The position numbers and the translations under genes were made by a program. The notes below the pieces were generated by a model. That model was not told the DNA's origin, did no database searches, and was given only the letters and a program-made list of their open reading frames with translations. From Patescibacteria group bacterium (lineage in GTDB: Bacteria > Patescibacteriota > Microgenomatia > UBA1400 > PJMF01): a DNA stretch of 60,445 nucleotides. The DNA is taken from NCBI GenBank assembly GCA_052035325.1, contig JBPOHR010000003.1, positions 1 through 60,445 of the forward strand. Reading direction: 5' to 3'. Shown here piece by piece: positions 5,434 to 46,941 of this stretch; position 1 is the stretch's first letter, and every line of letters begins with the position of its first letter.

Positions 5434-5439
5434 ATAAAA

Positions 5440-9191: not shown

Positions 9192-9254
9192 AGACGCCTT
9201 TCGATATAACTTGAGTATACCAAACAATGGTAAGATTGGTATAATTGACGCTCT

Positions 9255-11182: not shown

Positions 11183-11256
11183 GCGGGATTAGTTCACTGG
11201 TAGAATGATTCCTTCCCAAGGAATAGAAGCGGGTCCGATTCCCGTATCCCGCTCCA
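11183..11256 (+). tRNA. tRNA-Gly (CCC), CCA encoded, T loop TCCGATT
   Basis: Acceptor GCGGGAT/ATCCCGC, U73, CCA; anticodon arm ATTCC-TTCCCAA-GGAAT; promoter TGT-TAGAAT at 11155-11163. Confidence 0.96.
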
Positions 11257-13132: not shown

Positions 13133-13189
13133 ATACCCTCGTATTATTCATAAAGTATATCCAATTTCTTGATATACTACATACATCTA

Positions 13190-19959: not shown

Positions 19960-19984
19960 ATAGAAAACAGTATAGCAAAAAAAC

Positions 19985-25723: not shown

Positions 25724-25766
25724 AAAAAAACCTCCATCGCGCTATATACATAGTGCGTGAAGGTTT
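25724..25766 (-). terminator. ileS leader terminator / SD-sequestering hairpin
   Basis: AAACCUUC-ACGCACUAUGUAUAUAGCGCGAU-GGAGGUUU followed by more U's (7 in total) and then AUG; the 5' arm overlaps the antiterminator. Confidence 0.8.
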
Positions 25767-25905
25767 CTCGAGATCTCTCAAGAAAGGTACCAACCTTCTG
25801 TACTTGATTATGGCTGTATCGGGCTCCCCGGCTCGGTCTAGTGTCTATGCTTCAGCAAAGAGTTCTTCGAGCACCTCCCCTAGTGATGGCTAGGGTTATG
25901 CGGCT
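25724..25905 (-). ncRNA. T-box riboswitch leader of ileS with ultrashort Stem I (specifier AUC)
   Basis: Promoter TGG-TACACT (25912-25920); hairpin CCCUAG-CCAUCA-CUAGGG (25878-25895); T-box AGAAGGU-UGGUACC (25786-25792 bulge); antiterminator closed by CCUU; alternative hairpin followed by U7. Confidence 0.9.
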
Positions 25906-25942
25906 ATATGTAGTGTACCACGAGGCAGCTGGTAACAAAATG

Positions 25943-27484
25943 CTACTTCCCATTTGAAAATGTCAGTTCAGAGCTACTCACTATTTTTGGCGAAAGAGAA
26001 CCTAGATATCTATTCAACCAAAACTTCCTCATCAGTGCAGAAAACCACGTATCATGTTTTCGAAGTGATCTAAGATACTCTCCATGTTTTCTCCCTAATT
26101 CATCTATCTTTGTGCTCACTTCTTTTAGCTGCACAGTATGGACAACCCCAGCTTCACCAGAAAGTGCTGCACTTTCATCCACTTTTTTCAACACGTATGT
26201 TTCAACGATCCCTAAAGCCTCATCAAGTGAAAGACCTAGAGTTGGTCCCGTTAGGCCAGCAAGCACTTGAGGCAAATAGTAGTACCGGACGGCATTATTT
26301 TCTGTTGAAACTTTGCCTAGGTGCTGTACAAACTCACCATGCTTGTGTACAGCGTCGAGTAGTACTTCCATTTGTTGTTTGTTAGCCACTTTTCTGGCAA
26401 GAGCTAGACGTACCGCAGCTACTGCTACCTTTGGTTTTTTTGAATATAACTTTGTGTACTCCGCTTTCATTCCCATAGACTCCATAAAGGACTCAAGCAT
26501 CGCCAACCAGGCTTCTTCTGGTGATTTACCAGCTCTCAGGGCATCAAATGCGCTAGCAACCAACTGCCAGTTCAACCAAGTTCGCTCATTCATGACCACA
26601 CTTGATCCATCAGCTGTAGGTACAACACCGGCCATATCGACTAGATTCTCCAACAGCCACTGCGTAAATTCTTCAGAAGTCTGGAAGATTGACTCGCTTA
26701 GCAATGCCTGTAGCTGCTCGGGACCCGCTTCAAGCCCTTGTGCTAACTGGCCAACATTGGTACTGACACCGCCTTTGATAATTCGTTTAATCCGCTCTTG
26801 GACGTCTGGTGACTGTTTATTTAGCAATGGCAAGAATTGAGCACGTAGTTCAGGCGTGTCCACTAGATAAGCCAGTGCCGCATCATGATCAGTAGTCAAG
26901 TTTGTGCCATGCGACTGAGCGTTTTCATGAATAGCTTTCTCGACTATGCCCAACTTAGCAATATCATGTTGCAGAAGTAGTACTATTTCCGTAGTGAATG
27001 ACTCAACACTTGAAACAGTACTGTTGGCTCGCTCGCACATCTGTTCAAATGAAGCCCGAGTTAAACCACCTGATTTTTCAGCTGAAGTCCGCGGGACAAA
27101 AAGTCTATAGGCTTTGTCAGCCGTAGCTACTTGGTTACCCTTATGAAGCAAAAACAACACATAAATCGACTGGATTGTCTTTTTCTTTTCTGTTTGTGGA
27201 TTTTTTGGTGAATAACTGGCGGCTTCCAGCGAGCGATCAAACAGACCAAGTTCTTCTGGAAATGCACTCTGTAATTTCCGGGAGAATACATCAAAAAATT
27301 GTGTTCTTGATTCTAGCAAATCAGGATCTACCTTTTCAAATTCCTGGAACACATCATTCAGCCAAGTCACGATATCAGCAGGTTTTTCTGATGCTGCTGC
27401 TAGTCTGTCACGGACAGTTTTGGGTACATCCATCCCCCCATCAACCATTTGTCTACGAATTACATCTTCAGCAAAAGAAAACAT
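25943..27484 (-). CDS. Hypothetical 513-aa protein with HD-phosphohydrolase-like motifs
   Basis: LLLQHDIAK, TDHD, NVGQLAQ.E, LVDMAG; TATACT 7 nt before ATG. Confidence 0.7.
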   Translation of the reverse strand: MFSFAEDVIRRQMVDGGMDVPKTVRDRLAAASEKPADIVTWLNDVFQEFEKVDPDLLESRTQFFDVFSRKLQSAFPEELGLFDRSLEAASYSPKNPQTEKKKTIQSIYVLFLLHKGNQVATADKAYRLFVPRTSAEKSGGLTRASFEQMCERANSTVSSVESFTTEIVLLLQHDIAKLGIVEKAIHENAQSHGTNLTTDHDAALAYLVDTPELRAQFLPLLNKQSPDVQERIKRIIKGGVSTNVGQLAQGLEAGPEQLQALLSESIFQTSEEFTQWLLENLVDMAGVVPTADGSSVVMNERTWLNWQLVASAFDALRAGKSPEEAWLAMLESFMESMGMKAEYTKLYSKKPKVAVAAVRLALARKVANKQQMEVLLDAVHKHGEFVQHLGKVSTENNAVRYYYLPQVLAGLTGPTLGLSLDEALGIVETYVLKKVDESAALSGEAGVVHTVQLKEVSTKIDELGRKHGEYLRSLRKHDTWFSALMRKFWLNRYLGSLSPKIVSSSELTFSNGK

Positions 27485-27507
27485 ACTAGCTAGTATAGTT
27501 GATGTTT

Positions 27508-28887
27508 CTACTTCTGTCTCAAGAAAGCGGGAATTTCAAACTCATCATCAAAATCACTGTCAGCTGCTGGTGTTGGAGTCGTTGTCGTCGGTGTCACCAC
27601 TGCTGGTGCAGGCTGGACAGGTGCTGAAGCACGAGATGGTTGCACTTGATCACCAAAAGCTTGTGATCGCACAAATGGTTGTGTCGGCATATTCATGCTC
27701 GAAGAGCCTGACATTTGTTGACTCATTTGTGGTTGCGTGAATGAACTAGGCGCTCGATCAATCTTCGGTGCCATTGGCTCATCACTTGTCTGTGCCAAAC
27801 CAAAAATCCGAGGTTGTCGCAAACCTGTAGCGGGAGCTGCAGCTACGCTTGGGTTATCACCAAGACGTCGTTGTGATTCTCGACCAAACGCGCCAAAAAT
27901 AGGTCGATTGGTAGCCGCGTAACCCATTTGACGTTCATCAAAACCGGTGGCAATCACACTAATCTTGATGCTCGAGCCCATGTCTTCATCAATAGTCGCA
28001 CCAAATATAATGTTGGCGTCAGGAGCAGCCGCATTGGCAATAATGGCTGAAGCATCAGACACTTCACTCATGGTCATATCTGAACCACCAATCACGTTGT
28101 ATAAGATACCGTGGGCACCATCAATTGACACCTCAAGAAGTGGCGAAGAAATGGCCATCCGTGCGGCTGTAGCAGCCCGATTTTCACCAGAGGCTTCACC
28201 AATTCCCATCAAAGCAGAACCAGAATCAGCCATAATGGTCTTCACATCTGCGAAGTCCACATTGATCAAACCAGGTACGGTAATTAAGTCAGAAATACCC
28301 TGGACACCTTGACCAAGTACGTTATCAGCTAAGCGAAACGCATCAAGTAGCGTCATTTTCTTATCCACCACATCCATCAAACGTTGGTTGGGAATCACGA
28401 TTAGTGTATCAACATTTTCTTTGAGCAACTCAATGCCTTCTTCTGCCGACTGCATCCGGCGAATACCTTCAAATGCAAAGGGTTTTGTCACCACAGCCAC
28501 TGTCAAGGCACCAGACTCTTTGGCAATCTGGGCAATAACTGGTGACGCACCGGTCCCCGTGCCACCACCCATACCTGCAGTAATAAACACCATGTCTGTG
28601 TCAAATAACAACTCTTTGATTTTCTCTTTACTTTCCTCAGCTGCAGTGCGACCCACATCAGGGTCGGCGCCAGACCCCAGACCTTTGGTAAAGTTACTGC
28701 CAATTTGCAATTTAGTGTCAGCTTTGGACGTCAACAATGCCTGTGCATCAGTATTGACAGCAATAAACTCCACACCTTGAATCTGGCCAGAGTTGATCAT
28801 CGAGTTGACGGCATTGCCACCACCTCCACCCACGCCAATGACTTTGATCTTGGCGAACGTCGTATTTGTTGGCTTAACCAGTCCCAT
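27508..28887 (-). CDS. ftsZ: Cell division protein FtsZ
   Basis: [23 protein letters not shown] tubulin motif, LINVDFAD, C-terminal [13 protein letters not shown]. Confidence 0.99.
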
Positions 28888-28925
28888 ACATGCCTTTAAT
28901 TACTAACATACCGAAAGTTGAGATC

Positions 28926-28940
28926 AAAGTGTATCACTTT
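28926..28940. promoter_or_regulatory. Inverted repeat AAAGTG-N3-CACTTT overlapping the ftsZ extended -10 (TGA-TACACT, minus strand)
   Basis: Perfect 6-bp arms in the ftsA-ftsZ gap; -10 at 28928-28933. Confidence 0.5.
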
Positions 28941-28969
28941 TTTCTGATGCGCAACAGAGCCTTATCTAG

Positions 28970-30280
28970 TTAGGGAAGTACTGATTTAATCAAATCAACT
29001 AATTTGGTGGCAACCGAACCGATAGGTAATTTTTTGAGTACACCACTGAGATCAAAACCACTAGAGTGTACTTCTGCAATGCCCTGGCGTCGTCCATACT
29101 CTAGGAGTCCAATACATGTAGAAAACGATGGCTTTTGTATATCTGTGACAAGCCCAGTGAGACCCTTTGGCTTACCCACTCTAGCAGGCAGATTTGTAGC
29201 ACGTTTAGCCACTTCCACAATACCAATTGTCTCGGCACCACCCCCAGTAATCACCAAACCAGCGGGAACTTGCCCAACAAGACCTTGTGATTCTAACTGC
29301 TGCATAATGAGCGAAAAAATTTCCTTCATTCGTGGCACCATAATTCCATCTATCAACGTTCGTTTTGATAATGCTTCAGACGCATCTTCCAATCCAAACT
29401 TCTTAGGATCTAGTTCATCGGCTTTTTTGCGCCGCCGGTTAAGTTCTTCTTTTGATTCACCTGGATGTGGCGAAATAGGACTAAGGTCTTCTTTGGACAA
29501 TGCAACTTTAATTTTTTCCGCACTATCTAGACTGACTCGGCAACCAAGAGCAATATCTTGAGTAATGTGACGAGCACCAATCGGCAATGTACCCGAGAAC
29601 ACCAACGCATTTTCAATATAAGCACAAATTGAAGTAGTGCCAGCGCCAATGTCTACCACAAGGACACCTAATTCTTTTTCCGTTTCGGTCACAACAACTT
29701 CTGCTGAAGCAAGTCCAGAGAACACAAAACCATCCACAGTAATTCCTAAATCATGCAAACATTTTTCAAAGTTCCTCAATGCTGTAGACATACCCGTAAT
29801 CAAATGAGCTTTTGCCTCAAGTCTCACGCCTGTCATACCTACCGGATCCTTGATACCATCTTGTGAATCTACCGTAAAATCCCCTGGAATAACATGAATA
29901 ATTTCTCGGTCAGCAGGAAGCGATACCGCTCGTGCAGCCTCGATCACTCGTGAGACATCTTCGCTGGTAATCTCTTGTGATGGCGAAGCAACTGCCACAA
30001 CACCTGTGGAATTCTGTGAACCAATATGCGTCCCCGCAAATGAAATAAACGCACTGCGGACATCAAAACCTGCCATACGCTCCGCAGCGTCAAGACTTTC
30101 GGTCATAGTCTCAAGAGCCTGTTCAAGATTGATTATGGTGCTACGACGAACACCTCGCGTGGGCACGACAGAAACACCTACCACCTGCAACTGATTACTT
30201 CCTTCTGGTTGTGTAGCAATCAGGGTGACACATTTGTCTGTGCCTAAATCTATAGCGGTTATTGGTGCGACACGAGGCAT
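28970..30280 (-). CDS. ftsA: Cell division protein FtsA
   Basis: AIDLGTDK, DPVGMTGVRLE, VDIGAGTT, LVITGGGA, C-terminal amphipathic helix. Confidence 0.98.
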   Translation of the reverse strand: MPRVAPITAIDLGTDKCVTLIATQPEGSNQLQVVGVSVVPTRGVRRSTIINLEQALETMTESLDAAERMAGFDVRSAFISFAGTHIGSQNSTGVVAVASPSQEITSEDVSRVIEAARAVSLPADREIIHVIPGDFTVDSQDGIKDPVGMTGVRLEAKAHLITGMSTALRNFEKCLHDLGITVDGFVFSGLASAEVVVTETEKELGVLVVDIGAGTTSICAYIENALVFSGTLPIGARHITQDIALGCRVSLDSAEKIKVALSKEDLSPISPHPGESKEELNRRRKKADELDPKKFGLEDASEALSKRTLIDGIMVPRMKEIFSLIMQQLESQGLVGQVPAGLVITGGGAETIGIVEVAKRATNLPARVGKPKGLTGLVTDIQKPSFSTCIGLLEYGRRQGIAEVHSSGFDLSGVLKKLPIGSVATKLVDLIKSVLP

Positions 30281-30314
30281 AAAGTAAACGTACGAGCTTT
30301 AAGCATAGCAACTC

Positions 30315-31028
30315 TCATGAATTGTGTCGAGGTAGTGTTGGTGTTGTGCGCAACACGGGCAACGCATAACGAGTATCTACTTCGACAATTGGCTCCGGAT
30401 AGGTGCTCCAGTCTATACCTGACTGGATAACGTGCCAACGCTGCCAATCAAGTTGCCATTCATGCAAGTTTAAAATAACAGTACGCTCATCGCTGCGAAA
30501 CGATAAGACATGAGTATCATCATACGCTATTTCTGTAAGCGCTTGGGAGTGACTTTCGCTCAAAAATGCAGCTAGTAATTGCGTATCACGCATAAACTCC
30601 TCTGATGAGTCTTGCCAAATGTGCCAAACACTAGGTGAGACATGGACGCTTGAAATGGAAGCAGGTATTTCTTGTAACAATAACAACGTGTGGCGATCAG
30701 TAATTGCCCATGACTCTTCTTCTACTTGTGCAATAAACAGAATACGTTCATTTGCTAACGTCACGTGTAAGGTCATTGGCCACCGCCGCGCGTATTCTGC
30801 TATGTATACACCAGTATTCGCCCCAAGGGAAACTACTGGGATTTTATTAAACAACATTCGCTGACCTTGTAGTGACTTAAGAGCTCGTATCTCTGTGTCT
30901 GTACACTCTCGTTCTGGATGACTGCAAGTCACGTGATCTACTTTCCACAGCCATACGCTTCCTACCACGACAGCACTCATCAAGAACCACCAGATAATCG
31001 TTTGGGGTTGGGCTAAACGGGCTGACAT
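30315..31028 (-). CDS. ftsQ: FtsQ/DivIB-like protein (divergent)
   Basis: Position between murG and ftsA, single N-terminal TM, RRWPMTL.V.L segment, C-terminal VEVDTRY..PVLR. Confidence 0.6.
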   Translation of the reverse strand: MSARLAQPQTIIWWFLMSAVVVGSVWLWKVDHVTCSHPERECTDTEIRALKSLQGQRMLFNKIPVVSLGANTGVYIAEYARRWPMTLHVTLANERILFIAQVEEESWAITDRHTLLLLQEIPASISSVHVSPSVWHIWQDSSEEFMRDTQLLAAFLSESHSQALTEIAYDDTHVLSFRSDERTVILNLHEWQLDWQRWHVIQSGIDWSTYPEPIVEVDTRYALPVLRTTPTLPRHNS

Positions 31029-31031
31029 ACA

Positions 31032-32144
31032 CTATGGTGATGCCACATCTTCAATATGTGACCAAAGATGATGAAGTGCTTTATCATTGTAACGATGTTT
31101 CTCAAGATGGCGGCGATAATCTTGGTTTTTGTCGATTGCTTCTTGAAGTGTGTCATGCAAAACTGCTGGAGTTAATGCTGACTGAGGAATACTTCGAGCT
31201 GCACCTGTGGAAACGAGTGGTTCAGCATTTTTTGTCTGCTCATCTTGACTTGCCGTTGGTAATGGAATCAGAATCGCCGGAACGCCAAAGTGAACAAATT
31301 CTGTAATGGTATTGGCTCCAGCTCTACCAACTACAACGGTAGCATGTTGCCAAATCCAAGCTAGTTCCGACTCAGTAAACCATGACTTTGCCATGTACCT
31401 TTGTTGGAGTGCAGTTGGTAGTAATCGTACTGTTGCGTGCAATTCCTCTTGATAGTTATGTTGAATCGTTGCATTGCCACATTGGTGAATAACTATCCAC
31501 TTACTCAACATCACGGGAAGCAATTCTTTGATGACTTGGTTAATAACCAGTGCACCTTGATTGCCCCCAGTTACAAATACGACAGGCACCTTATCCTGGC
31601 ACCACCAGCCTGGCTGTGAAGCCAGCTTACGTAAACCTGGCCTCAATGGATTACCCGTTACATATGCTTTGTGTTGGAGTGAATGTGGTAGTAAACTCCG
31701 TGATGATTCAAAACTAAGGGCAATTCGCTGTGCGAATTGGCCAATAAATCGTGTTGCATACCCAATCACACGTGTCTGTTCATGCGTAACAATAGGAATA
31801 CCTCGGACTGCTGCAGCAACTGCAAACGGGACTGCTTGATACCCCCCAAAGGAAACAAGCACATCAACTTCTTCATCTTGAATAAGTGAGAATGCTTGCC
31901 AAACTGCCTTCAACATTCTGAACAAACTTAGCACCGATTTCACTCCCCTTGGTGCGGCAAATAGCACAAATCGAGTATTACGATGTTGTCCCACTTCATG
32001 GCTCTCATGACTCTCTTGGAGTAATTGATCTTGGCTATATTTCCTGCCAGCAAACACTATTTGTACGTCGCTACGTGCTTCTTCCAAGTACTCAATAAGT
32101 GCCAATGCAGGTGTGAGGTGACCACCGGGTATAAGTATTGTCAT
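31032..32144 (-). CDS. murG: Lipid II GlcNAc transferase MurG
   Basis: GGHLTPALA, SFGGYQAVP, HEQT, TGNPLR, VTGGNQGA, GRAGANT, DEQTKNA. Confidence 0.96.
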   Translation of the reverse strand: MTILIPGGHLTPALALIEYLEEARSDVQIVFAGRKYSQDQLLQESHESHEVGQHRNTRFVLFAAPRGVKSVLSLFRMLKAVWQAFSLIQDEEVDVLVSFGGYQAVPFAVAAAVRGIPIVTHEQTRVIGYATRFIGQFAQRIALSFESSRSLLPHSLQHKAYVTGNPLRPGLRKLASQPGWWCQDKVPVVFVTGGNQGALVINQVIKELLPVMLSKWIVIHQCGNATIQHNYQEELHATVRLLPTALQQRYMAKSWFTESELAWIWQHATVVVGRAGANTITEFVHFGVPAILIPLPTASQDEQTKNAEPLVSTGAARSIPQSALTPAVLHDTLQEAIDKNQDYRRHLEKHRYNDKALHHLWSHIEDVASP

Positions 32145-33268
32145 GATGCTGACTGTAGTGTACTGGATTTTCGCGATACTGTCCCGTGTCGGCTGGCATG
32201 CAATAGTACGCCGCTAGCAAATAAAATCATGATGAGAGCTGTCCCTCCATATGAGAAAAAAGGCAGTGGCACCCCCGTAAGTGGAACCAGTGCCACCACA
32301 GCGCCCAGATTAAGCACAGTTTGGGCTGTTAACCATGTCAATATGCCAAAACTTAATAATTGTGCGGTTTTATCAAGTTCACTGGTAATAATGACGCGCA
32401 AACTTGTCGCAAAAAAAGCTATGTAGAGCCCTATCAGTAGTAACGAGCCAACAAGACCCACTTCTTCAGCTATTACCGCAAAAATTGAATCAGTGCTCGG
32501 CTCAGGCAAGTATGAATACTTTTGTTGAGACTGACCAATTCCTTGACCAAACACCCCGCCATTTCCCAAGGCTAGTGTTATTTGTCTAATATGAAAGCTT
32601 GCTCCCAATGGGTCAGATTCAGGGTTAAGGTAGGTCAATAGTCTTTCGCGTCGATATGGTGCTGCCAATACTAATATGGCCAAAATCACAATGCCAACAG
32701 TTCCCACACCTAGTAAATGTTTGAATTGGCCACCCGCCACATAATACTGTGCGCCAGCAATGCTAAGCAAAATGAGAACTGAACCCAAATCAGGTTGAAG
32801 CAGTACTAAACCTGCCGGAATTGCAGTTAAAGCGAGAAAAGGGACTAATCGTTGATGTCGACTCATCCACATGGCAAAAAACGCGACTGTTGCAAACTTT
32901 ACCACTTCAATTGGTTGGAAAATAAAACCGGCAATTGAAATCCACCGGTGTGCTCCATTTAGTTCTCTGCCAATTCCAGGAATGAAAATCGCAATCAACA
33001 GTAAGATACTAAGGCCATACAACCACGGGCTTAGAGTACTCCACACCTTTGTGGGCATCAAATAACCGATTGCTAAAGCCCCAATACCTAACAAAAAGTG
33101 AAATGCTTGCTGTTTGAACAAAAAATATGGATCATTAAAGGTGACGTACGACTCGTATAAAGACGCATTCAAAACGAAAAACAAACCTAGTCCACTCAAA
33201 ACAAGAATCAAGATTAATAACACTCGACTAGACGTAAACAAGCTAACGTTTAAATGACGGCGAGCCAT
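32141..33268 (-). CDS. ftsW: SEDS protein FtsW
   Basis: NGAHRWI, FQPIEVVK, QPDLGS, PYRRERL, YLPEPSTDSIF, TGVPLPFFSYGG; start set at ATG 33268. Confidence 0.95.
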   Translation of the reverse strand: MARRHLNVSLFTSSRVLLILILVLSGLGLFFVLNASLYESYVTFNDPYFLFKQQAFHFLLGIGALAIGYLMPTKVWSTLSPWLYGLSILLLIAIFIPGIGRELNGAHRWISIAGFIFQPIEVVKFATVAFFAMWMSRHQRLVPFLALTAIPAGLVLLQPDLGSVLILLSIAGAQYYVAGGQFKHLLGVGTVGIVILAILVLAAPYRRERLLTYLNPESDPLGASFHIRQITLALGNGGVFGQGIGQSQQKYSYLPEPSTDSIFAVIAEEVGLVGSLLLIGLYIAFFATSLRVIITSELDKTAQLLSFGILTWLTAQTVLNLGAVVALVPLTGVPLPFFSYGGTALIMILFASGVLLHASRHGTVSRKSSTLQSAS

Positions 33269-34293: not shown

Positions 34294-34322
34294 GTGTAGT
34301 TATCTTACAACGGATTGAATTG

Positions 34323-35651: not shown

Positions 35652-35652
35652 A

Positions 35653-36615: not shown

Positions 36616-36621
36616 AAATTA

Positions 36622-38064: not shown

Positions 38065-39035
38065 GTGAGTACTTCCTGAAATACAGGCGAGAGTTTGCTA
38101 GAGTCATGTCGGAGCAGTGATCGATGTGCAGTATCAACTTCTGATGTTTGGAATACTTCATTGGCAATCACCGATCGACGTAGAACTCGGGGATCATCAC
38201 CCATATCATCAACCACAGGATACTCGTGTTCTTCGGCATAGTACTTCAATGTTTGATCATCGATGACTTCAGTATTAATCAGTATGTAGTCCACTGGTCG
38301 ACCCAATGCAGACTCGATACCAGCGATATGATCATGTGCTGACATATCTGGAGTTTGGGTGTTGCGAGTCATTAAATTGAGGACATACAGCACCTTACCA
38401 GAAATATGTGCGAAGACTTCTTTCGTCCCGCCAGCAACAAGCACCGCCATCAAACTAGCATAATAATCACCTGGTCCTATCACAATCAAATCAGCAGTTC
38501 CCAGTGCGTCGGCAGCTTGTGGATTCAGCTGGGCGGGAGGTTGTAAACTAACGGAACTTACTTTTTTCGGCTTGGCACTATCCTCATCCAAAATATGCTC
38601 ACCCACTGCCATAGTTCCATCACTGTAGTTGATCTGCAATTGGACATTTTCTTTAGTCGCTGGAATGACCGTGCCATCGATACGGAACACTTTTTCGGCA
38701 ATTTCTAAAGCTTGAGTCGTATCACCAGTCATATCTTGCAAGGCAGTTAGAATAAGATTACCCAAGTTATGACCCTTGAGACCCTCACCCTTCTTGAATC
38801 GATACAATAGAATGTTTCGAATCCACTCCTCACCTTGATTTTCAGCAAGAGCTGCCAATGACTGGCGCAAATCACCCACAGCCTGAAAACCAAACTCATC
38901 TCGGATACGCCCCGTCGAACCTCCCGAGTCTGAAACAGCTATCACCGTTGAGATTGATGCTCCTATTTGTTTAAACGCCTGGATCACGGGAAATGTTCCG
39001 GTTCCACCGCCCATCACTACAACTTGTTTTGCCAT
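38061..39035 (-). CDS. yvcK: YvcK/GlmR (UPF0052, CofD-like) UDP-sugar-binding protein
   Basis: VVMGGGTG, DSGGSTGRIR, GDLRQ, GHNLGNL, IGPG, LLRHDS.KL. Confidence 0.9.
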   Translation of the reverse strand: MAKQVVVMGGGTGTFPVIQAFKQIGASISTVIAVSDSGGSTGRIRDEFGFQAVGDLRQSLAALAENQGEEWIRNILLYRFKKGEGLKGHNLGNLILTALQDMTGDTTQALEIAEKVFRIDGTVIPATKENVQLQINYSDGTMAVGEHILDEDSAKPKKVSSVSLQPPAQLNPQAADALGTADLIVIGPGDYYASLMAVLVAGGTKEVFAHISGKVLYVLNLMTRNTQTPDMSAHDHIAGIESALGRPVDYILINTEVIDDQTLKYYAEEHEYPVVDDMGDDPRVLRRSVIANEVFQTSEVDTAHRSLLRHDSSKLSPVFQEVLT

Positions 39036-39044
39036 GGTATCTTT

Positions 39045-40274: not shown

Positions 40275-40293
40275 ATGAATGATTGATTATAGC

Positions 40294-42060
40294 CTAGTTC
40301 AAAATTGATTTATCAGGGGGAATATTCATTACTAAAAATACCTTTTTTGCCACTCGATACCAGAGCGGGGCCGCTGTCTCTGCTGCCCATGGGGAGGATG
40401 TTGGCTCAACCAACTTCACCAACATTATAAACTCGGGGTGATCAGGTGGAGCAAATCCTATGAATGTCGCAATGGTCCTATCTGTAGCATAGCCACCCGG
40501 AATCGGAACTTGAGATGTACCAGTTTTGGCTGCCACCCAATGATCATTCGACGCAATCCATTGCGCTTCACCTTTTTGAGCTGCATACACCATCATTTCA
40601 GTTACTTTTTGCGCTGTCTGGGCAGAGACTGGTTCTGATTCAATTACTGGTTCACTCATCAGGATTTCACCTGTATTGAAGTCTTCTGCTGTTTTGATAA
40701 GCGTAGGTCGGACAACTTTCCCTTGATTGGCAATTGCATTAATAGCTTTCAAGACTTGCAGGCTTGTCGTACTAATACCCTGGCCAAACGAAATCGTCGC
40801 CAACTCTACAGGGCCCCACTGTGCTGGAAATGGTGGTGAAGTATCCTCTTGCAACTCAACTCCAGCTTCGTGACCTAAACCAAATTTCTGAAGATAGCTC
40901 TTTAACTTTTCAGATCCCAACTGTTCTGCTACAAAAATCATTGCCGTATTGTCCGACTTTGCGATTGCCTCGGTCATGGTGATATTAGGATGATATTCAT
41001 TGTTCCACGTCTTCAAGGTGAAACCTGCAATTTTGCGAGGACCATCACACTGCGGGCACTGTGTTTCTGGCGTAATGACGCCTGCATCGATTCCAGCTGC
41101 CACGGTCAGTGTTTTCAAGGTAGATCCCGGCTCATATCCGCTGGAAACCGCAGGGTTTTTATAGAGTTGTGCATCAAAATCAGCAAACGCAGCAGGATCA
41201 TAGCCAGGAGCAGTTGCCATTGCCAAAATGTGACCGGTTTGGGGTTGCATAATAATAATTTCGCCACTTTTGGCACCGTACTGCTCTAATCCATACGCCA
41301 AATTTTCCTCTGCGATATGTTGTAAATCTCGTCGAATCGTTAACGTAATGTCACGACCATCCTGAGGTCTTGAAGCTAATAAACTGCTTGGAAGCTTTAA
41401 ACCAGGTAATACTCGAGGCAATATGCGGCGATCAAATGCTCCACTCAACTCACGATCCAACGCGCCTTCTATTCCAAAATATCCCACATCATCTCCTCCC
41501 TCATTTTTTCCAACAAACCCTACCACTTGTGCTGCTAAAGATGCTTCTGGATACGCTCGCGCAAAATATGGTTCTGTGCCTACACCTGTAATTTCAAGAT
41601 GCTTGACCGCACTACGATGCACTTCATCAAGTCCATCTAGCAACATCACCCACTTTGCTCCCTGCCTGGACAACTTCACTACTAAAGTATCCTCGATTTG
41701 TCGTAACTGAGTTGCCGCAGAAACTGAAGCCGAAACAGGGGCTAAATCAAGTACGAGCGGTGCCAATTGTCTTGCTACCTCTGATGGGGTAGTGGTAAGT
41801 AAATGTGGTTGGGCAAATAACCGATATCGCTGTTCTGTCATCACCACGGTATACCCATCGGCAGTTTTGATACTTCCTCGCTTACCTTGAGTAATTATCA
41901 GTTTTTCGTATTGGGATTTCGCCTCTGCTCGTAAAACAGGACCCCTAATTATTTGCCAGTAACTTAGCCGCACAACTATGGCAATCATCAGCAATATAAA
42001 TACAACCACCATCACCTGGAGTCTCTCCGGTGCTAAATGTTCCGCTGTTGATTGAATCAT
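40294..42060 (-). CDS. ftsI: Class B penicillin-binding protein (FtsI/PBP3)
   Basis: YEPGSTLK (SxxK), KSDN (SxN), AKTGT (KTG); follows ftsL. Confidence 0.92.
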   Translation of the reverse strand: MIQSTAEHLAPERLQVMVVVFILLMIAIVVRLSYWQIIRGPVLRAEAKSQYEKLIITQGKRGSIKTADGYTVVMTEQRYRLFAQPHLLTTTPSEVARQLAPLVLDLAPVSASVSAATQLRQIEDTLVVKLSRQGAKWVMLLDGLDEVHRSAVKHLEITGVGTEPYFARAYPEASLAAQVVGFVGKNEGGDDVGYFGIEGALDRELSGAFDRRILPRVLPGLKLPSSLLASRPQDGRDITLTIRRDLQHIAEENLAYGLEQYGAKSGEIIIMQPQTGHILAMATAPGYDPAAFADFDAQLYKNPAVSSGYEPGSTLKTLTVAAGIDAGVITPETQCPQCDGPRKIAGFTLKTWNNEYHPNITMTEAIAKSDNTAMIFVAEQLGSEKLKSYLQKFGLGHEAGVELQEDTSPPFPAQWGPVELATISFGQGISTTSLQVLKAINAIANQGKVVRPTLIKTAEDFNTGEILMSEPVIESEPVSAQTAQKVTEMMVYAAQKGEAQWIASNDHWVAAKTGTSQVPIPGGYATDRTIATFIGFAPPDHPEFIMLVKLVEPTSSPWAAETAAPLWYRVAKKVFLVMNIPPDKSILN

Positions 42061-42344
42061 CGCAAAGCCACGGTGGTAGGTGCTGTCACTGCAGCAACCT
42101 GTTCAATAGGCTGGAATTGGTTATACACAGAACTTGACTTAAGTTGAAGCAGCGAGTGTTGGTATGCCAACGTTCGCTCCAAATCCTGACGTTCAGAAAG
42201 TAAGTCTGCCTTATTTTTTTGTAGATCTGCGACAGATTGTTGAGATGCCAAAGCCGTCCCAGAAGTGATTACTGTACTTAACGCCTGAATAACTACAATG
42301 GCAATGAGCAAACCATAGTACAGTGCAGTGGTGCGGTATGTCAT
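42057..42344 (-). CDS. ftsL: FtsL-like protein
   Basis: 95 aa, TM plus coiled coil, between rsmH and ftsI with overlapping stop/start codons. Confidence 0.6.
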   Translation of the reverse strand: MTYRTTALYYGLLIAIVVIQALSTVITSGTALASQQSVADLQKNKADLLSERQDLERTLAYQHSLLQLKSSSVYNQFQPIEQVAAVTAPTTVALR

Positions 42345-43228
42345 ACTTCAAATATCCTTAGTTTTGCGCTGCGACTGCGAGGATTTTCCTCGAGCTCAAC
42401 AGCACCTGGTGTTAGTACGTCTTTGTTAATGCGGTGACCATATCCTGATTTTTCCCAAGCAACAAACTGTTGCTTAACCAAGCGGTCTTCCCCTTCGTGA
42501 AATGCAATCGTGATAATTCGTCCTTGTTTCAATAAATTTGGAATCTGAACTAAGACCTGAGATATGACGTCCATTTCTTGATTCACTGCCACTCGTAATG
42601 CTTGAAAAATCTTGGTAGCGGGATGCAGATGACCAGTGCGAGGATTGTGTTTAGCAATCAAATCAGCTAATTCCTGAGCACTTGGGTGCTCTGCAGCCGA
42701 AAAACGAGCAATCCACTTTTTGATGGTGGGGGCTAGTCGGTACGCCGCAAACTCGCCATGTTCTTTGAAGAGTTGTTCAAGCTGCTTAACCGGCAAGACC
42801 CTGAGCAAATCTTCGGCGGTCACACCCAAGCGATCATCCATCCTCATATCAAGAGGGGCTGAACTTGTGAAGCCAAAACCACGGTGATCGGCGAGAAGTT
42901 GATCAGAACTTGTCCCAAAATCAAACAAAATCCCGCGTAAATTATCGAGTGCGAATGTTGAGTTACCAACAGCTGACTTAACCGCTGCTGCTAGTTCAGA
43001 GAAGTTGCGACGTAGCAACACTACTTGTTCTGCAGAAATTGCTGATTTGAACTCTGTTTGACCGTACTCAATTGCTTCAGTATCTACATCCAGTGCAAGC
43101 ACTTTGCCACCTCGGCTTAAGATTTCACGAGTGTGTCCTCCTCGACCGAAAGTCGCATCTATGTACCAGTTACCTGGCTCTACTTGTAGGGCATCGACGG
43201 CTTCATGAAGTAAGACGGTTTTATGCAT
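42341..43228 (-). CDS. rsmH: 16S rRNA m4C1402 methyltransferase RsmH (MraW)
   Basis: H.TVLL.E, IDATFGRGGH, PLDMRMD, HPATKIFQALRVAVN, FHEGEDR, ENPRSRSAKLR; start set at ATG 43228 (43249 also possible). Confidence 0.96.
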   Translation of the reverse strand: MHKTVLLHEAVDALQVEPGNWYIDATFGRGGHTREILSRGGKVLALDVDTEAIEYGQTEFKSAISAEQVVLLRRNFSELAAAVKSAVGNSTFALDNLRGILFDFGTSSDQLLADHRGFGFTSSAPLDMRMDDRLGVTAEDLLRVLPVKQLEQLFKEHGEFAAYRLAPTIKKWIARFSAAEHPSAQELADLIAKHNPRTGHLHPATKIFQALRVAVNQEMDVISQVLVQIPNLLKQGRIITIAFHEGEDRLVKQQFVAWEKSGYGHRINKDVLTPGAVELEENPRSRSAKLRIFEV

Positions 43229-43673
43229 GGTGTTGTTTGAGTGTTGCATCAGGTGAATCTGTCATGTGTTCGGCAATATCTTCTGCTTGGCTCTCCAAGT
43301 TATCGACATACGTGTGATAGAGAGGCACGTCCCAGATCTCAATCCAGGAAAAGCTGCCTACAATTACCACATTTTTCTGAAGTTTGGCGAACTCAATCAA
43401 GTACTCGGGCAGTTGTACTCGACCATTGTTGTCAACCTCGACTTCGACGGCGTCATTTGTCATAAGACGAACAAAGTCACGATTATATTTCACTGTGAAG
43501 GTGCGCTCCGAGAGCTCCGCAATTTTCTGTTGAAAGTCCTGGGCGGGAAAACCAAATAGTCCCCCATCCAAACCTCTCGTCAGTATCCAGTTGGTGGTGT
43601 ACTCACGAAATGTTTTGGGCAGCGAGAGGCGATTATTCGTCTCAATGGTGTGATAAAAGCGCCCGATGAACAT
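43221..43673 (-). CDS. mraZ: Transcriptional regulator MraZ
   Basis: MFIGRFYHTIE..NRLSLP, TRGLDG.L, VDNNGRVQLP, EIWD; start set at ATG 43673. Confidence 0.96.
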   Translation of the reverse strand: MFIGRFYHTIETNNRLSLPKTFREYTTNWILTRGLDGGLFGFPAQDFQQKIAELSERTFTVKYNRDFVRLMTNDAVEVEVDNNGRVQLPEYLIEFAKLQKNVVIVGSFSWIEIWDVPLYHTYVDNLESQAEDIAEHMTDSPDATLKQHHA

Positions 43674-43684
43674 TTTTATAAGCT

Positions 43685-43704
43685 TTTTTACCAATTTTTA
43701 CCAA
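43685..43704 (-). promoter_or_regulatory. Tandem 10-bp direct repeat (TTGGTAAAAA)x2 upstream of mraZ, a candidate MraZ operator
   Basis: Perfect 10-bp period, 12-31 nt upstream of the mraZ ATG. Confidence 0.65.
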
Positions 43705-43789
43705 CTGGCATATATTTAGTAAACACCATCTGGTAGCAGATGTAAAGAGGGAGATTTAGTTTATAATATTGATCTGTTAATAAGGATCT

Positions 43790-44503
43790 ATGCCCACCTT
43801 ACTAGGAAAAGAACTGTTGCAAGAAGAAGAAGCGATGATTGCTATAGCAGAAGGGGCAAATCGGGAAAGTGAGAAAGATGAGCTTTTTCACGATGGCGAA
43901 CTTGCTGAGATTGATTCCCCCTCGCTAAATGTATTAGATCAGTTAATCAAGTCAAATGAGCAACTGAGCGAGGCTGTTTTAGAATTTTTACGTATCGCAG
44001 CACAACTAGAAAACGTTAAAAAAAGGTTGAATTACTTGAGTAAAGAAAGTGCTATTATTTTAGGGCTCTTTTTTTCGATTATTACGACCATTTTTTTCTC
44101 CACATATCCAATCCCACCTGACATGGAGGCTAGAATCGGTCAACTGTTTCTTTCCTCAGCAGCCTCATTATCTGCAACCGCATTTTTGTATACTACAAAC
44201 CTTATTAATTCAATAAAAAGAATAATTACTAAAGTTAACAGACAAAGAATCGAAGAATACAGCCTTCTGCTGGAACAGCAAGTTAGGCTTAGTAGCGAAC
44301 TGGAAGAATCAAGTGTGAGCGTTCAGCGAGCCATCGATTACTATTCAAATAAAAATGGAAAACCATTTGCCGCTAGACGTCTGCTGACACTTCTAACGAC
44401 AATTCCCCGTTTTCAAAGCTCATATCAATACAATCTCAAATACGTATTTATTGAGATAGCAAAACCTAAGGCAAAAAAAGAGGAAGGTACCTCAGTTAAA
44501 TGA
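43790..44503 (+). CDS. Hypothetical protein with a two-TM hairpin between coiled coils
   Basis: TATAAT at 43762-43767, SD AAGGA, 237-aa ORF; A/T-rich. Confidence 0.75.
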   Translation: MPTLLGKELLQEEEAMIAIAEGANRESEKDELFHDGELAEIDSPSLNVLDQLIKSNEQLSEAVLEFLRIAAQLENVKKRLNYLSKESAIILGLFFSIITTIFFSTYPIPPDMEARIGQLFLSSAASLSATAFLYTTNLINSIKRIITKVNRQRIEEYSLLLEQQVRLSSELEESSVSVQRAIDYYSNKNGKPFAARRLLTLLTTIPRFQSSYQYNLKYVFIEIAKPKAKKEEGTSVK

Positions 44504-44507
44504 GGTA

Positions 44508-45305
44508 TTACTTCGTCACCACGTAGAGCTCCATGAGTGGCACGGTTGCTGTAGCCGTTTTGCCATCTACTGCTGTCTCAAAACTCTGCCATTTCTGACC
44601 GTCCCAACCTTGGATTTTCAGGCTGCCCTCTTCGTTGGCACGCATAGTCAGCTTCACTTGTCCATTGAGGCTTGAGCTAGACGTTAGAGAATATGGATCA
44701 GAAACGGGAGTCCCAGACAAACCAGCAGGATAACCAGCAGTGTTGAAGATCACCAGGTATCGCACGGTTTTCAAACCATCTGACTCGATCTGGAACTTGG
44801 CATCTTTTGAACTAAATGCCGCTTCCTTAGCCTTGTTATCTATGTACTTCCAATCAGACTTCAGGGCATACGCTTCAGCTGCATCGTAGCGAGTAGTAAT
44901 AGAACCACCTCGTACGTCCTCATGGAATGTGCAGGCTCCACCAGCACTACAACTACCAAGTAAAATGGTCTTGCTCGCTGGTAGCGTGCCCAATGTGAGC
45001 TCACCAAAAGCACCTTGCAAGAGTGAACCTGCCTGATACTCAATTTCATACTCAACAGTGCTGGCAGTTTTGGGAACACTCAAAACTTTGAACGTAATGT
45101 TGTGTCCATCTACTTCTGGAACAATCTGCAAATATGGTCGTTCAGCGACTGAAATAGTATTGACAGGAGCAGACTTGCGTTTTTTCTCAGCCACTTTTGC
45201 ATCTTCAGTAGGCTTACCACCACGAGTTGCTAGAAAAACACCCCCGCCGATTACTAGTACAAGAATTACGATAGCACCAATAATAAGCGGGAGTTTTTGC
45301 TTCAT
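44508..45305 (-). CDS. Membrane-anchored extracytoplasmic protein (unknown function)
   Basis: N-terminal TM, Lys-rich linker, beta-rich domain with CSAGGAC; 6 nt downstream of glyQS. Confidence 0.8.
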   Translation of the reverse strand: MKQKLPLIIGAIVILVLVIGGGVFLATRGGKPTEDAKVAEKKRKSAPVNTISVAERPYLQIVPEVDGHNITFKVLSVPKTASTVEYEIEYQAGSLLQGAFGELTLGTLPASKTILLGSCSAGGACTFHEDVRGGSITTRYDAAEAYALKSDWKYIDNKAKEAAFSSKDAKFQIESDGLKTVRYLVIFNTAGYPAGLSGTPVSDPYSLTSSSSLNGQVKLTMRANEEGSLKIQGWDGQKWQSFETAVDGKTATATVPLMELYVVTK

Positions 45306-45311
45306 AGACGT

Positions 45312-46709
45312 TTAGCTTACCATGTTTGCGAGGTAGGGCTCAAGTTCGGTGATGGGCACGCGCTGCTGCTCGGCAGTGTCGCGATTTCGAACAGTCACTG
45401 CTCCATCGGTAAGCGTCTCGAAGTCAATCGTGACGCAGGCAGGTGTACCAATTTCGTCTTGATACAGATATGCCTTACCAATGTTCCCCCGATTATCCCA
45501 AGCAGTACGCATGGTGGCGGATAATTGAGTGAAGACTTCTTGTGCCTTAGCCACGAGCTCTGGCTTGTTCTTGAGCAAGGGAATCACCGCCACTCGGTAT
45601 GGGGCCAGTGCCGGATTCAACCTCAGGACAGTGCGTTGTTTGGAGTCGTCGAACCAGTAGGCATCGGTCAGGATCATCAGAAACAACCGATTGATACCAA
45701 CGGCTGGCTCGATGACGTGGGGCAAGAACTTCTCACCCGATTGTGGATCGGTGTACTCGAGGCTTTGGCCCGAGTGATCTTGATGCTGCTTGAGATCGTA
45801 GTTCGTACGATATGCGACACCCCAGAGTTCTTTCCAGCCAAAACTAAAGTTATAATCCAGATCGTAGGTATCTTTACTGTAGTGACTGCGTTCTTTGTCG
45901 GTGTGTTGACGCCAACGCAAGTTCTCTGCCTTGATACCTAGCTGTTGCGTCACAAACTCCCACATGGCATCTTTCCACTTAGCGAGCTCATCTTCCCATT
46001 TAGATTGATTAGGATTGAAAAAGTACTCAATCTCGGCCTGCTCAAACTCAATCGTCCTGAAGACAAACTGCCCCGTAGTGATTTCATTGCGGAAACTACG
46101 TCCAATGTTACCCACCCCAAACGGCAGTTGCACACGAGTGCTGTCGAGAATTTGCTTGAAGTTGGCAAAAATGCCTTGGGCCGTCTCACCGCGGAGGTAG
46201 ACCTTTGACTTCTCACCCGTGACGGTGCCAATAGCTGTTTCAAACAATAAATTAAAACTCTTGGGTGCCGTGACGGGGTTACCATCGGGGCTGAGGATGT
46301 GATGCTCTGAGATAAAAGTAGCCATCTCGTCGATCTTCATATCCTCTACTGATACACCCATTACCTCAGTGTGCTTCGCTAACCAAGCCTCAATTAGATG
46401 ATCTGCCCGATAGCGCTTGTGACTAACCGTATCCTCCACCAACGGATCGCTGAAAGAAGCCACATGGCCAGACGCCACCCAAGTCTCAGGATGTTGGAGA
46501 ATCTGGGTGTCGAGACCAACCATGTCGGTACGACGGTGAATAAAGTGAGTCCACCACAAGTTACGAATATTACGAAGCAATTCAGCACCCAAAGGACCGT
46601 AGTCGTAGGAATTGGCTAACCCGCCATAAATCTGCGAAGTAGGAAATACGAAGCCGCGGCGTTTGGCCAAAGCAACGATGTCATCTAGTTTGACAGAAGT
46701 GTCTGTCAT
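45312..46709 (-). CDS. glyQS: Glycine--tRNA ligase, homodimeric (alpha2) type
   Basis: KRRGFVFP..QIYGG, YDYGPLG, LRGETAQG, FRNEIT, IEFEQAEIE, PHVIEPAVG, RYLYQDEIGTP-like anticodon-binding domain. Confidence 0.97.
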   Translation of the reverse strand: MTDTSVKLDDIVALAKRRGFVFPTSQIYGGLANSYDYGPLGAELLRNIRNLWWTHFIHRRTDMVGLDTQILQHPETWVASGHVASFSDPLVEDTVSHKRYRADHLIEAWLAKHTEVMGVSVEDMKIDEMATFISEHHILSPDGNPVTAPKSFNLLFETAIGTVTGEKSKVYLRGETAQGIFANFKQILDSTRVQLPFGVGNIGRSFRNEITTGQFVFRTIEFEQAEIEYFFNPNQSKWEDELAKWKDAMWEFVTQQLGIKAENLRWRQHTDKERSHYSKDTYDLDYNFSFGWKELWGVAYRTNYDLKQHQDHSGQSLEYTDPQSGEKFLPHVIEPAVGINRLFLMILTDAYWFDDSKQRTVLRLNPALAPYRVAVIPLLKNKPELVAKAQEVFTQLSATMRTAWDNRGNIGKAYLYQDEIGTPACVTIDFETLTDGAVTVRNRDTAEQQRVPITELEPYLANMVS

Positions 46710-46741
46710 AGAACCCTTTCTTGCCTGAGATCAGCGTATAC

Positions 46742-46779
46742 AAAAAAGCCCCAGGCATCAATCATGATTGCCTAGGGAC
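46742..46779 (-). terminator. glyQS leader intrinsic terminator
   Basis: GUCCCUAGGCA-AUCAUGAUUGA-UGCCUGGGGC-UUUUUU; the 5' arm competes with the antiterminator. The SD GAAAGGG lies about 20 nt further downstream, unsequestered. Confidence 0.85.
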
Positions 46780-46898
46780 CCGGTGCCTTGCGGGCTAAGC
46801 AGAGACGTGTGGGCGGTTCCACCCTAGTTCTCACAGAGATCTATCGAAAACTGCGAGCACTTTTGAAAAAATGTGTTAAGACTGGTTGCCAGACCAGT
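46742..46898 (-). ncRNA. T-box riboswitch leader of glyQS with ultrashort Stem I (specifier GGC)
   Basis: Promoter TGA-TATACT (46905-46913); hairpin ACUGGU-CUGGCA-ACCAGU (46881-46898); Stem III CUCGCAG/CUGUGAG; T-box AACUAGGG-UGGAACC-GCCC; antiterminator closed by GGGUCCCU; terminator plus U6. Confidence 0.93.
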
Positions 46899-46941
46899 GT
46901 GTTAAGTATATCACGACAAAGGGACATTCCAGTACGACTAC

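Follow-up and report, generated by a model that had tools for sequence, protein, structure and literature searches.

T-box leaders are riboswitches that sense tRNA. The 2023 classification recognizes four classes of them, in which tRNA binding is augmented either by an elbow platform or by an S-turn in Stem II (PMC10482949). Class III, exemplified by the ileS leaders of Nocardia farcinica and Mycobacterium tuberculosis (6UFM and 6UFG, per PMC7583486), has a short Stem I without platform and a specifier codon in a penta- or hexanucleotide apical loop, requires Stem II, and consists mostly of translational regulators (PMC10482949). Ultrashort and intermediate forms of Stem I are found mostly in translational T-boxes (Zhang 2020 review, PMC7583486), and a 2023 preprint states that every ultrashort T-box regulates ileS. 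Class II is exemplified by the glycine T-boxes of Bacillus subtilis glyQS and Geobacillus kaustophilus glyQ (6POM and 6PMO, per PMC7583486); a 2024 survey of glycyl T-boxes contains long Stem I forms only, and strong GGC-GCC pairing is the proposed reason why they manage without Stem II (PMC11404447). A discriminator motif, RRRxG-Stem III-AA, was defined by Li et al. 2019 (as summarised in PMC7583486), and Stem III is reported to be indispensable in the T-boxes studied (PMC7583486). Here I describe two T-box leaders, one upstream of ileS and one upstream of glyQS, in a stretch of 60,445 nucleotides (nt) from a Patescibacteria group bacterium (contig JBPOHR010000003.1 of assembly GCA_052035325.1), hereafter called the window.

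The best explanation of the data, to which I assign a probability of roughly 0.8, is that both leaders are T-box transcription attenuators, the ileS leader being a Class III element equipped with a terminator and the glyQS leader a Class II element devoid of the upper part of Stem I. The observations behind it are the anatomy of the leaders, mutually exclusive folds, covariation, concordance between codon and gene and between bulge and discriminator base, and conservation in families of relatives. A first-pass annotation of the window had located the hairpins, codons, bulges and extended -10 boxes of both leaders, and all of them lie where it put them, on the minus strand. It had also called the two leaders unrelated while ascribing to them a single shared minimal architecture. 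Neither description holds: both leaders belong to the T-box family, and only that of glyQS is minimal, the ileS leader having kept a K-turn-like element, a Stem II S-turn and Stem IIA. The parts of the glycine system are as follows (bp, base pairs; R1, a covariance model described below).

46913-46905, minus strand: glyQS promoter, extended -10 box TGATATACT within TCGTGATATACT; predicted transcription start at about 46898.
46898-46881, minus strand: Stem I, a single hairpin ACUGGU[CUGGCA]ACCAGU, with GGC at 46890-46888 followed by A (centroid fold and R1 alignment).
46880-46863, minus strand: A/U-rich single-stranded linker of about 18 nt that replaces Stem II and Stem IIA/B (unpaired in the centroid fold).
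46862-46828, minus strand: 5' part of the discriminator, comprising AAGUG (RRRxG) at 46862-46858, the 7-bp Stem III CUCGCAG...CUGUGAG at 46857-46830, and AA at 46829-46828.
46827-46772, minus strand: antiterminator, with helix A1 (CUAGGG/CCCUAG), bulge UGGAACC at 46821-46815 and helix A2 (GCCC/GGGU).
46777-46742, minus strand: intrinsic terminator of 9 bp, CCCUAGGCA...UGCCUGGGG, then C and U6 (centroid fold); its CCCUAG is common with A1.
45312-46709, minus strand: glyQS gene, a single-gene dimeric-type glycine--tRNA ligase (NF003211, 586 bits; TIGR00389, 500 bits), ATG at 46709.
11183-11256, plus strand: tRNA-Gly(CCC), ending in ...CCCGC-U-CCA, hence discriminator U73 and an encoded CCA.

The first base of the glyQS hairpin practically coincides with the predicted transcription start, about 7 nt 3' of the -10 box, and the hairpin has no base helix, K-turn or elbow platform. 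The terminator fold was calculated at -37.0 kcal/mol and the enforced antiterminator at -23.4 kcal/mol, and the ribosome-binding site GAAAGGG (46720-46714) is free, 22 nt past the terminator. The bulge sequence UGGA pairs with U73 of the tRNA-Gly(CCC) encoded in the window, so that the match between bulge and discriminator base proposed at first pass is borne out for glycine. Similarly, profile matches of the downstream genes agree with the proposed assignment of the apical-loop codons, GGC-A to the glycyl-tRNA synthetase (GlyRS) and AUC-A to the isoleucyl-tRNA synthetase (IleRS). The A2 loop of the window copy contains a 29-nt insertion (46810-46782, minus strand) where close relatives have a tetraloop (GCCC-GNNA-GGGU). 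An exact 8-nt direct repeat, CTTAACAC, is found on both sides of the specifier hairpin (46899-46906 and 46873-46880, minus strand).

Conservation of the glyQS leader was assessed in 80 genomic loci encoding GlyRS relatives. The sequence GGGUGGNACC was present at most 450 nt upstream of the GlyRS gene in 49 of the 80 loci, two more being found later, and the glycine T-box element as a whole in 50 of the 80, belonging to Patescibacteria and to large-genome Chloroflexota. A rigid count of hairpins and codons (stem of at least 4 bp, loop of 6-10 nt) was abandoned: it missed many real cases and muddled the ranking of codons. It was replaced by a codon-anchored search with a background control of 3,287 GGCA sites, complemented by a covariance model. 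In the window and 48 loci, a hairpin of at least 3 bp surrounded GGC in 48 of 49 leaders, against 30% of background sites, and one of at least 4 bp in 67%, against 12.7%. These hairpins comprise 27 distinct stem sequences and have loops of 5-9 nt with the consensus CUUUGGCAA; the GGC lies 53-155 nt (median 69) 5' of the bulge. The hexaloop rule stated by the first-pass annotation is therefore too narrow for the glycine leaders, while it stands for ileS (13 of 13, see below).

A base helix and a GA motif (...GAUGA-N-CGC[CUUUGGCAA]GCG-G-GAG...) surround the hairpin in about 30 of the 49 glycine leaders, among them nearly all those from Chloroflexota; by sequence, this resembles the K-turn at the foot of a canonical Stem I. 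So far, only copies from the candidate phyla radiation (CPR), such as that of the window, have been seen to lack both base helix and K-turn. Two ways in which a larger structure might have been overlooked were considered and rejected. A Stem II hidden in the linker is ruled out by the motif counts, 1 of 49 leaders having a Stem IIA-like motif and none of the 49 an S-turn-like one. A long Stem I drawn from upstream sequence is ruled out by the conserved -10 box, which lies 14-51 nt before the codon: an extended -10 box was present in 19 of the 49 leaders at a median of 23 nt before GGC (14 in the window), and this leaves no room for a long Stem I. A U-run follows the bulge in 43 of 50 leaders, and inspection placed it after a hairpin that reuses the 3' strand of A1.

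Several relatives carry variations of their own. Three leaders (L064, L072 and L016) have no U-run, and the region of their A1 3' strand pairs with the ribosome-binding site; these look like translational versions, or sequestrators, judging from the pairing. In a CPR sub-branch (L012, L013, L015, L017, L026 and L027), a long base helix encloses the specifier hairpin together with another one, which gives a three-way junction spanning about 20 nt before to 60 nt after GGC; the second hairpin, often followed by AAGUAAC, might play a role like that of Stem II. The bulge of L070 (Anaerolineaceae, at about 2937) is UGGGACC instead of UGGAACC, which would imply C73 or a non-Watson-Crick contact. Six Chloroflexota leaders (L039, L040, L044, L053, L056 and L075) have extra sequence 50-100 nt upstream of Stem I, between it and the promoter-like box, and this sequence holds repeats such as CACAGAGAACACAGAG...CTCTGTG.

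Alignment of 35 glycine leaders with MAFFT and RNAalifold recovered Stem III and the antiterminator and left Stem I unrecovered, because variable loop lengths misaligned it. Seeding with leaders whose loops were equally long solved this. The resulting covariance model, R1 (107 positions, 21 pairs), was built on 15 relatives, of which 13 were Chloroflexota and 2 CPR, the window copy being excluded. When the window was searched with filters off, the best match of R1 was 46899-46771, full length and including Stem I, at 36.5 bits (E=3e-8). The runner-up (38737-38866, 14.7 bits) lies inside a Mur ligase reading frame and was dismissed; on the ileS leader R1 reached 11.2 bits, in the discriminator region alone. 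Over the window and the 80 loci, R1 gave 51 matches, one per locus, always just 5' of the GlyRS gene and on its coding strand. In the alignment of these 51 leaders, which is fitted to R1 and thereby favours the structure in pair counts, standard pairs occupied 95.6% of cells, against 64.9% after shuffling (none of 500 shuffles reached 95.6%), and pairing fell to 38-51% when the partners were slid. Stem I was paired in 94.7% of cells, and each of its three pairs had changed on both sides; Stem III had both-side changes at all 7 pairs, and A1 and A2 also covary. GGC lay in the loop of 50 of the 51 leaders, the lone exception, a leader with a long insertion, probably being an artefact of placement. 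GGC is followed by A in 46 leaders, by G in 3 and by C in 1, hence by a purine in 49 of 50, and the bulge is UGGAACC in 50 of 51. No conserved element beyond the parts contained in R1 was seen in this alignment.

The existing covariance model does not cover these leaders; full coverage would have counted against the first-pass proposal. At gathering thresholds, Rfam called three tRNAs in the window and no T-box, nor did it call any T-box in 20 glycine loci or in 20 ileS loci. In E-value mode, the window glyQS leader scored 24.1 bits with RF00230, the gathering score of which is 93 bits, and the ileS leader gave no T-box match; six glycine relatives scored 23.7-47.1 bits and three gave no match. 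What RF00230 and the glyQS leader have in common is Stem III and the antiterminator, the only parts to be aligned: the true specifier hairpin is treated as an insertion, and the model puts its own Stem I on sequence 5' of the promoter.

Set beside the Class II glycine T-boxes, the glyQS leader has in common with them GGC followed by a purine, a single-stranded linker where Stem II would be, RRRxG-Stem III-AA directly 5' of A1 (as defined in PMC7583486), the UGGAACC bulge and a terminator/antiterminator switch. The GA/K-turn motif at the base of Stem I is a further likeness, mostly kept by the relatives and absent, with the base helix, from the window copy. Unlike Class II, the leader has no upper Stem I, the part that carries the interdigitated T-loop platform for stacking on the elbow of the tRNA. 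Its specifier lies in a terminal loop, in the window 14 nt past the -10 box, a departure from Class II also found in 50 relatives. The codon is about 8-20 nt from the transcription start, compared with roughly 100 nt in canonical leaders. The regulated enzyme fits single-gene GlyRS models (NF003211 and TIGR00389, glyS_dimeric) and not the two-gene glyQ/glyS pair. With Class III, the leader has the apical-loop specifier alone in common; it has no Stem II, hence no S-turn, and reads glycine, not isoleucine. The staphylococcal glyS T-box (PMC9177973) likewise precedes a single glyS-type gene and has a lineage-specific insertion, stem Sa, in the terminator/antiterminator domain; its Stem I is long and canonical, and the 29-nt insertion in the A2 loop of the window copy is likened to stem Sa by position alone. 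The first-pass annotation was right to single out the glycine leader as unusual; it has neither elbow platform nor Stem II.

The ileS leader is built differently, from the following parts.

25920-25912, minus strand: ileS promoter, extended -10 box TGGTACACT within TCGTGGTACACT; predicted transcription start at about 25905.
25873-25904, minus strand: Stem I domain with K-turn-like flanks GCC-GCA-UAA (25904-25896) and GA-GGU (25877-25873).
25895-25878, minus strand: specifier hairpin CCCUAG[CCAUCA]CUAGGG, with AUC at 25887-25885 followed by A.
25831-25872, minus strand: Stem II with an S-turn-like internal loop (GAAGAAC / CUAGAC), from a fold and covariation of both helices; UAGA is invariant.
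25813-25830, minus strand: Stem IIA, CGGG-GAG-CCCG, then AUACAGC (F-box / pseudoknot region); CGGG/CCCG occurs in 11-12 of 12 leaders.
25759-25805, minus strand: discriminator, with AAGUA at 25805-25801, A1 GAAGG(U) at 25798-25793 and the A1 3' strand CCUUC.
25792-25786, minus strand: T-box bulge UGGUACC, between A1 and A2 (A2 at 25785-25764).
25724-25766, minus strand: terminator hairpin, then U7 (fold); U7 at 25730-25724 abuts the ATG at 25723.
22904-25723, minus strand: ileS, isoleucine--tRNA ligase (TIGR00392, 783 bits), ATG at 25723.

At first pass this leader was said to begin with the hairpin. In fact the extended -10 box is followed by about 7 nt, then by GCCGCAUAA and only then by the hairpin; the roughly 9 nt that precede the hairpin are the 5' strand of the K-turn-like element. 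The sequence of its relatives, ACC-GUU-UGA[Stem I]GA-GGU, is compatible with a K-turn; in the corresponding strand of the window copy, GCC-GCA-UAA, A replaces the G of one G-A pair. Terminator and antiterminator, calculated at -30.3 and -21.8 kcal/mol (the latter enforced), are mutually exclusive, one strand being common to both folds. The bulge begins with UGGU, the partner of A73, the discriminator base of tRNA-Ile in general. The 3' strand of the terminator hairpin contains the ribosome-binding site, GGAGG (25735-25731); because of this, and because U7 abuts the AUG, the layout suggests that the hairpin would control both transcription and translation.

The comparison set for ileS consisted of 80 loci encoding IleRS relatives, taken from metagenomes. 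CPR-like loci with a UGGUACC bulge have in common, in this order, a conserved 5' strand ACC-GUU-UGA, a 6-bp stem with a hexaloop NNAUC(A/G), and GA-GGUG; a two-part Stem II (internal loop GAAGAA / UAGA) and CGGGUAAGCCCGUAA.AGC follow, and then AAGYA, the bulge and A2, and a hairpin with a U-run. The 6-bp stem and hexaloop were present in all 13 CPR leaders, window included, each with a different stem sequence. Together with GGC in 50 of 51 glyQS leaders, AUC in these 13 shows that loop codons track gene identity, which the first-pass annotation had made a touchstone of its proposal. RNAalifold applied to 12 ileS leaders found 21 pairs, which span Stem I, the two helices of Stem II and an almost invariant CGGG/CCCG Stem IIA; compensatory changes occurred at 17 of these pairs, all 6 of Stem I included. 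Stem IIA-like and S-turn-like motifs occurred in 22 and 20 of 31 ileS leaders, respectively. High-GC loci of actinobacterial type have gACAUCAcc, GGGAAGAA..GUAGAAC, Stem III, and structures that sequester the ribosome-binding site and have no U-run. The CPR relatives keep the hairpin and U-run even where their start codon lies 60-140 nt past the T-box bulge, and because of this retention the hairpin and U-run are read as a terminator.

The ileS leader has a short, platform-less Stem I, a hexanucleotide apical-loop specifier, a Stem II S-turn and Stem IIA, all of them features of Class III. Because this anatomy matches the published description (PMC10482949), the leader is, by sequence, the known ultrashort, actinobacterial-type decoding module of Class III, in which the IIB pseudoknot pairing is putative. 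Like the Class III leaders of N. farcinica and M. tuberculosis, it has AUC in the hexanucleotide apical loop, K-turn-like flanks, a Stem II S-turn, Stem IIA and a UGGUACC bulge. It differs from them in having an intrinsic terminator with U7 in place of a pure sequestrator of the ribosome-binding site, in having no Stem III, and in its host, a member of the Patescibacteria. Notable in this otherwise known architecture are the terminator platform, the embedded ribosome-binding site and the missing Stem III. Stem III is also absent from eight other ileS leaders (L081, L082, L086, L089, L093, L094, L095 and L099); it is present in the CPR relatives L084, L085, L088 and L097 and in the loci of actinobacterial type.

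These features suggest the following mechanism. Each leader would be transcribed constitutively from its own extended -10 promoter, and its default fold would be the intrinsic terminator, leaving the synthetase gene off. The anticodon of uncharged tRNA would pair with the apical-loop codon (AUC with tRNA-Ile, GGC with tRNA-Gly), and its free 3' NCCA end with the UGGN bulge (UGGU-ACCA, UGGA-UCCA). The bound tRNA would stabilize the antiterminator, which shares a strand with the terminator, so that RNA polymerase would read into the gene. In the ileS leader, the weak AUC-GAU duplex is expected to be shored up by the S-turn of Stem II, and the terminator would in addition hide the ribosome-binding site in its 3' strand. 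In the glyQS leader, deletion of the whole upper Stem I would have turned the specifier loop into a terminal loop; tRNA would be contacted at its anticodon and its 3' end only, and the two contacts would be bridged by the flexible linker of about 18 nt to a canonical discriminator. The all-G/C GGC-GCC duplex presumably makes this two-contact binding sufficient. Binding of tRNA, read-through and the sufficiency of two contacts are thus what I infer from the sequences.

Several points weigh against this explanation. Transcriptional T-boxes generally require a long Stem I with an elbow-binding double T-loop motif, and a truncated Stem I without Stem II barely binds tRNA (PMC7583486), so that, with two contacts, binding by a glycine T-box may be too weak or too slow in the absence of unseen help. 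The window copy is, with L002 and L003, one of the leaders reduced to the bare hairpin, with no base helix or K-turn motif. The ileS leader has no Stem III between AAGUA and A1 (25801-25793) and thus departs from RRRxG-Stem III-AA; the pair counts for the glycine leaders come from an alignment fitted to the model; and neither the gene for tRNA-Gly(GCC), the expected reader of the glycine specifier, nor that for tRNA-Ile lies in the window. The weakness of a truncated Stem I gives some force to the proposal that the glycine leader is a T-box in need of a helper, be it a K-turn-binding or other RNA-binding protein, a tertiary contact of the linker, or the extra hairpin of some relatives. Retention of the GA/K-turn motif in most glycine relatives and the second hairpin of the L012-type three-way junctions (the six loci named above) are in its favour. 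I nevertheless consider a helper unlikely: the window copy, L002 and L003 have neither K-turn motif nor second hairpin, their linkers are A/U-rich and unconserved, and the 51-leader alignment contains no conserved extra element. For ileS, the corresponding question is whether, as in Actinobacteria, the element works chiefly or exclusively at the level of translation, the hairpin sequestering the ribosome-binding site and U7 being incidental. The position of GGAGG in the 3' strand of the hairpin, the AUG directly after U7, the repetition of this layout (ribosome-binding site in the terminator strand, U-run against the ATG) in L081, L086, L093, L094, L098 and L099, the sequestering structures without U-runs of the high-GC relatives, and the mostly translational character of Class III (PMC10482949) all point that way. 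On the other hand, the hairpin and U7 of the window leader have the shape of an intrinsic terminator, and eight other CPR relatives (L082, L084, L085, L088, L089, L095, L097 and L108) keep a hairpin with 5-9 U although translation starts 25-90 nt downstream, at a codon that has a ribosome-binding site to itself; retention of the U-run in such leaders points to its selection as a terminator, and a mainly or solely translational action is unlikely.

The reading closest to the first-pass annotation is that of one streamlined, modular class whose anticodon sensor consists of nothing but a 6-bp stem capped by a C-N-codon-A hexaloop and is reprogrammed when the codon is exchanged. The two window hairpins do share their geometry, their promoters are similar, and codon and bulge bases match in both. 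Against one class stand the Stem II S-turn, Stem IIA and K-turn-like flanks of ileS, which are conserved or covary and have no counterpart in glyQS, the glycine loops of 5-9 nt, mostly CUUUGGCAA, and the 11.2 bits that R1 gives to ileS in the discriminator alone. An aspS T-box in a related CPR locus (L006) breaks the hexaloop rule as well, having no clean NN-codon-A hexaloop. Finally, the glycine type is also found in large-genome Chloroflexota. I hold a single class to be very improbable. Genome streamlining, which had been offered as its cause, fares no better: because Chloroflexota have the same glycine architecture on contigs of 6-14 Mb, this architecture is not a product of CPR genome reduction. 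There is also the possibility that the glycine architecture has already been catalogued, in TBDB or in comparative-genomics papers, and that merely the host phylum is new. TBDB did retain low-scoring INFERNAL matches (at least 15) and mentions class-I matches with a truncated Stem I, so that single sequences of this type may be present there undescribed, and glycyl T-boxes in Chloroflexi are mentioned in PMC5622331. However, the 2023 preprint ties all ultrashort T-boxes to ileS, none of the four 2023 classes fits (PMC10482949), the 2024 glycyl survey has long Stem I forms only (PMC11404447), and Rfam gives 24-47 bits against 93, or no match. A literature search, which Sherwood 2015 and Vitreschak 2008 lay outside, returned no paper joining T-boxes with Patescibacteria or the candidate phyla radiation, and none describing an ultrashort T-box that is specific for glycine and of the terminator type. 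Prior cataloguing therefore has, in my estimate, a small chance of being right. The first-pass claim that a glycine-specific, terminator-type version is undescribed agrees with these findings, the preprint restricting ultrashort forms to ileS and the four-class scheme having no such combination.

The combination found in glyQS falls outside the published Classes I-IV and is apparently undescribed. I lean, by a little, towards regarding it as a fifth class of T-box, which would regulate glyQS, mostly at the level of transcription, contact only the anticodon and the 3' end of tRNA, be widespread in Patescibacteria and Chloroflexota, and be invisible to Rfam. If so, the window copy, in which the antiterminator ends about 127 nt from the transcription start, would rank with the smallest natural riboswitches that sense tRNA. 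In current models, T-boxes capture tRNA through elbow stacking or the Stem II S-turn, a long Stem I serves fast binding in transcriptional T-boxes, and translational ileS leaders are the only ones with the ultrashort form. A glycine T-box that is conserved, has neither aid and ends in a terminator would contradict these generalizations and provide a compact natural RNA with which to test them; a two-contact tRNA sensor of about 130 nt would also suit engineered tRNA-responsive switches. There is, moreover, a gap in annotation: T-boxes of two large phyla escape the standard covariance model, so that in Patescibacteria and in much of Chloroflexota the regulation of these synthetases is currently unannotated. 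The nearest GlyRS relatives belong to Patescibacteria (CPR) genomes (70-80% identity), followed by Chloroflexota (65-70%). An element common to both phyla, whose GlyRS are 65-70% identical, bears on their relationship or on transfer of genes from one to the other; T-box leader and GlyRS gene travel together. Contigs of close GlyRS relatives are often labelled Pseudomonadales, Gammaproteobacteria, Vitreimonas or Methylococcaceae, yet group by sequence with Patescibacteria, and these labels are likely taxonomic mislabels.

The aspS T-box of L006 lies 5' of an AspRS-like gene (minus strand, about 5330-5560 of the reverse complement). It has a bulge UGGCACC, which fits G73, a IIA-like element and a terminator, and its Asp codon, GAC-A, straddles stem and loop of the predicted hairpin; Rfam did not call it.

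The window has a G+C content of 43-47%. Its remainder contains a cluster for cell division and the cell wall, made up of mraW, a gene for a penicillin-binding protein, Mur ligase genes, ftsA, ftsZ and rodA/ftsW, as well as recO, gatA/gatB and three tRNA genes. A scan of the 28 larger reading frames showed no synthetase genes other than ileS and glyQS, and each of these has a T-box leader; a pattern scan of the window for T-box bulges gave no match in leader position beyond these two. Megablast of ileS against plasmids returned no match. A simple promoter and terminator scanner detected neither the promoters nor the terminators of the two leaders, because the promoters have no good -35 box and the terminators have loops of more than 8 nt or mismatched stems; terminators were therefore assessed by folding. 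The promoter motif TGNTAYAMT, an extended -10 box with no clear -35 box, was also found at these positions.

9237-9245, plus strand: upstream of tRNA-Asp.
13170-13178, plus strand: upstream of tRNA-Thr.
19969-19977, minus strand: upstream of a small reading frame.
28928-28936, minus strand: upstream of ftsZ.

Its total in the window, 11 occurrences against 8.6 expected from shuffling, is not above expectation. The motif ends 9-11 nt 5' of the tRNA-Asp and tRNA-Thr genes, and, judged by these positions, this is probably the usual type of promoter in the organism.

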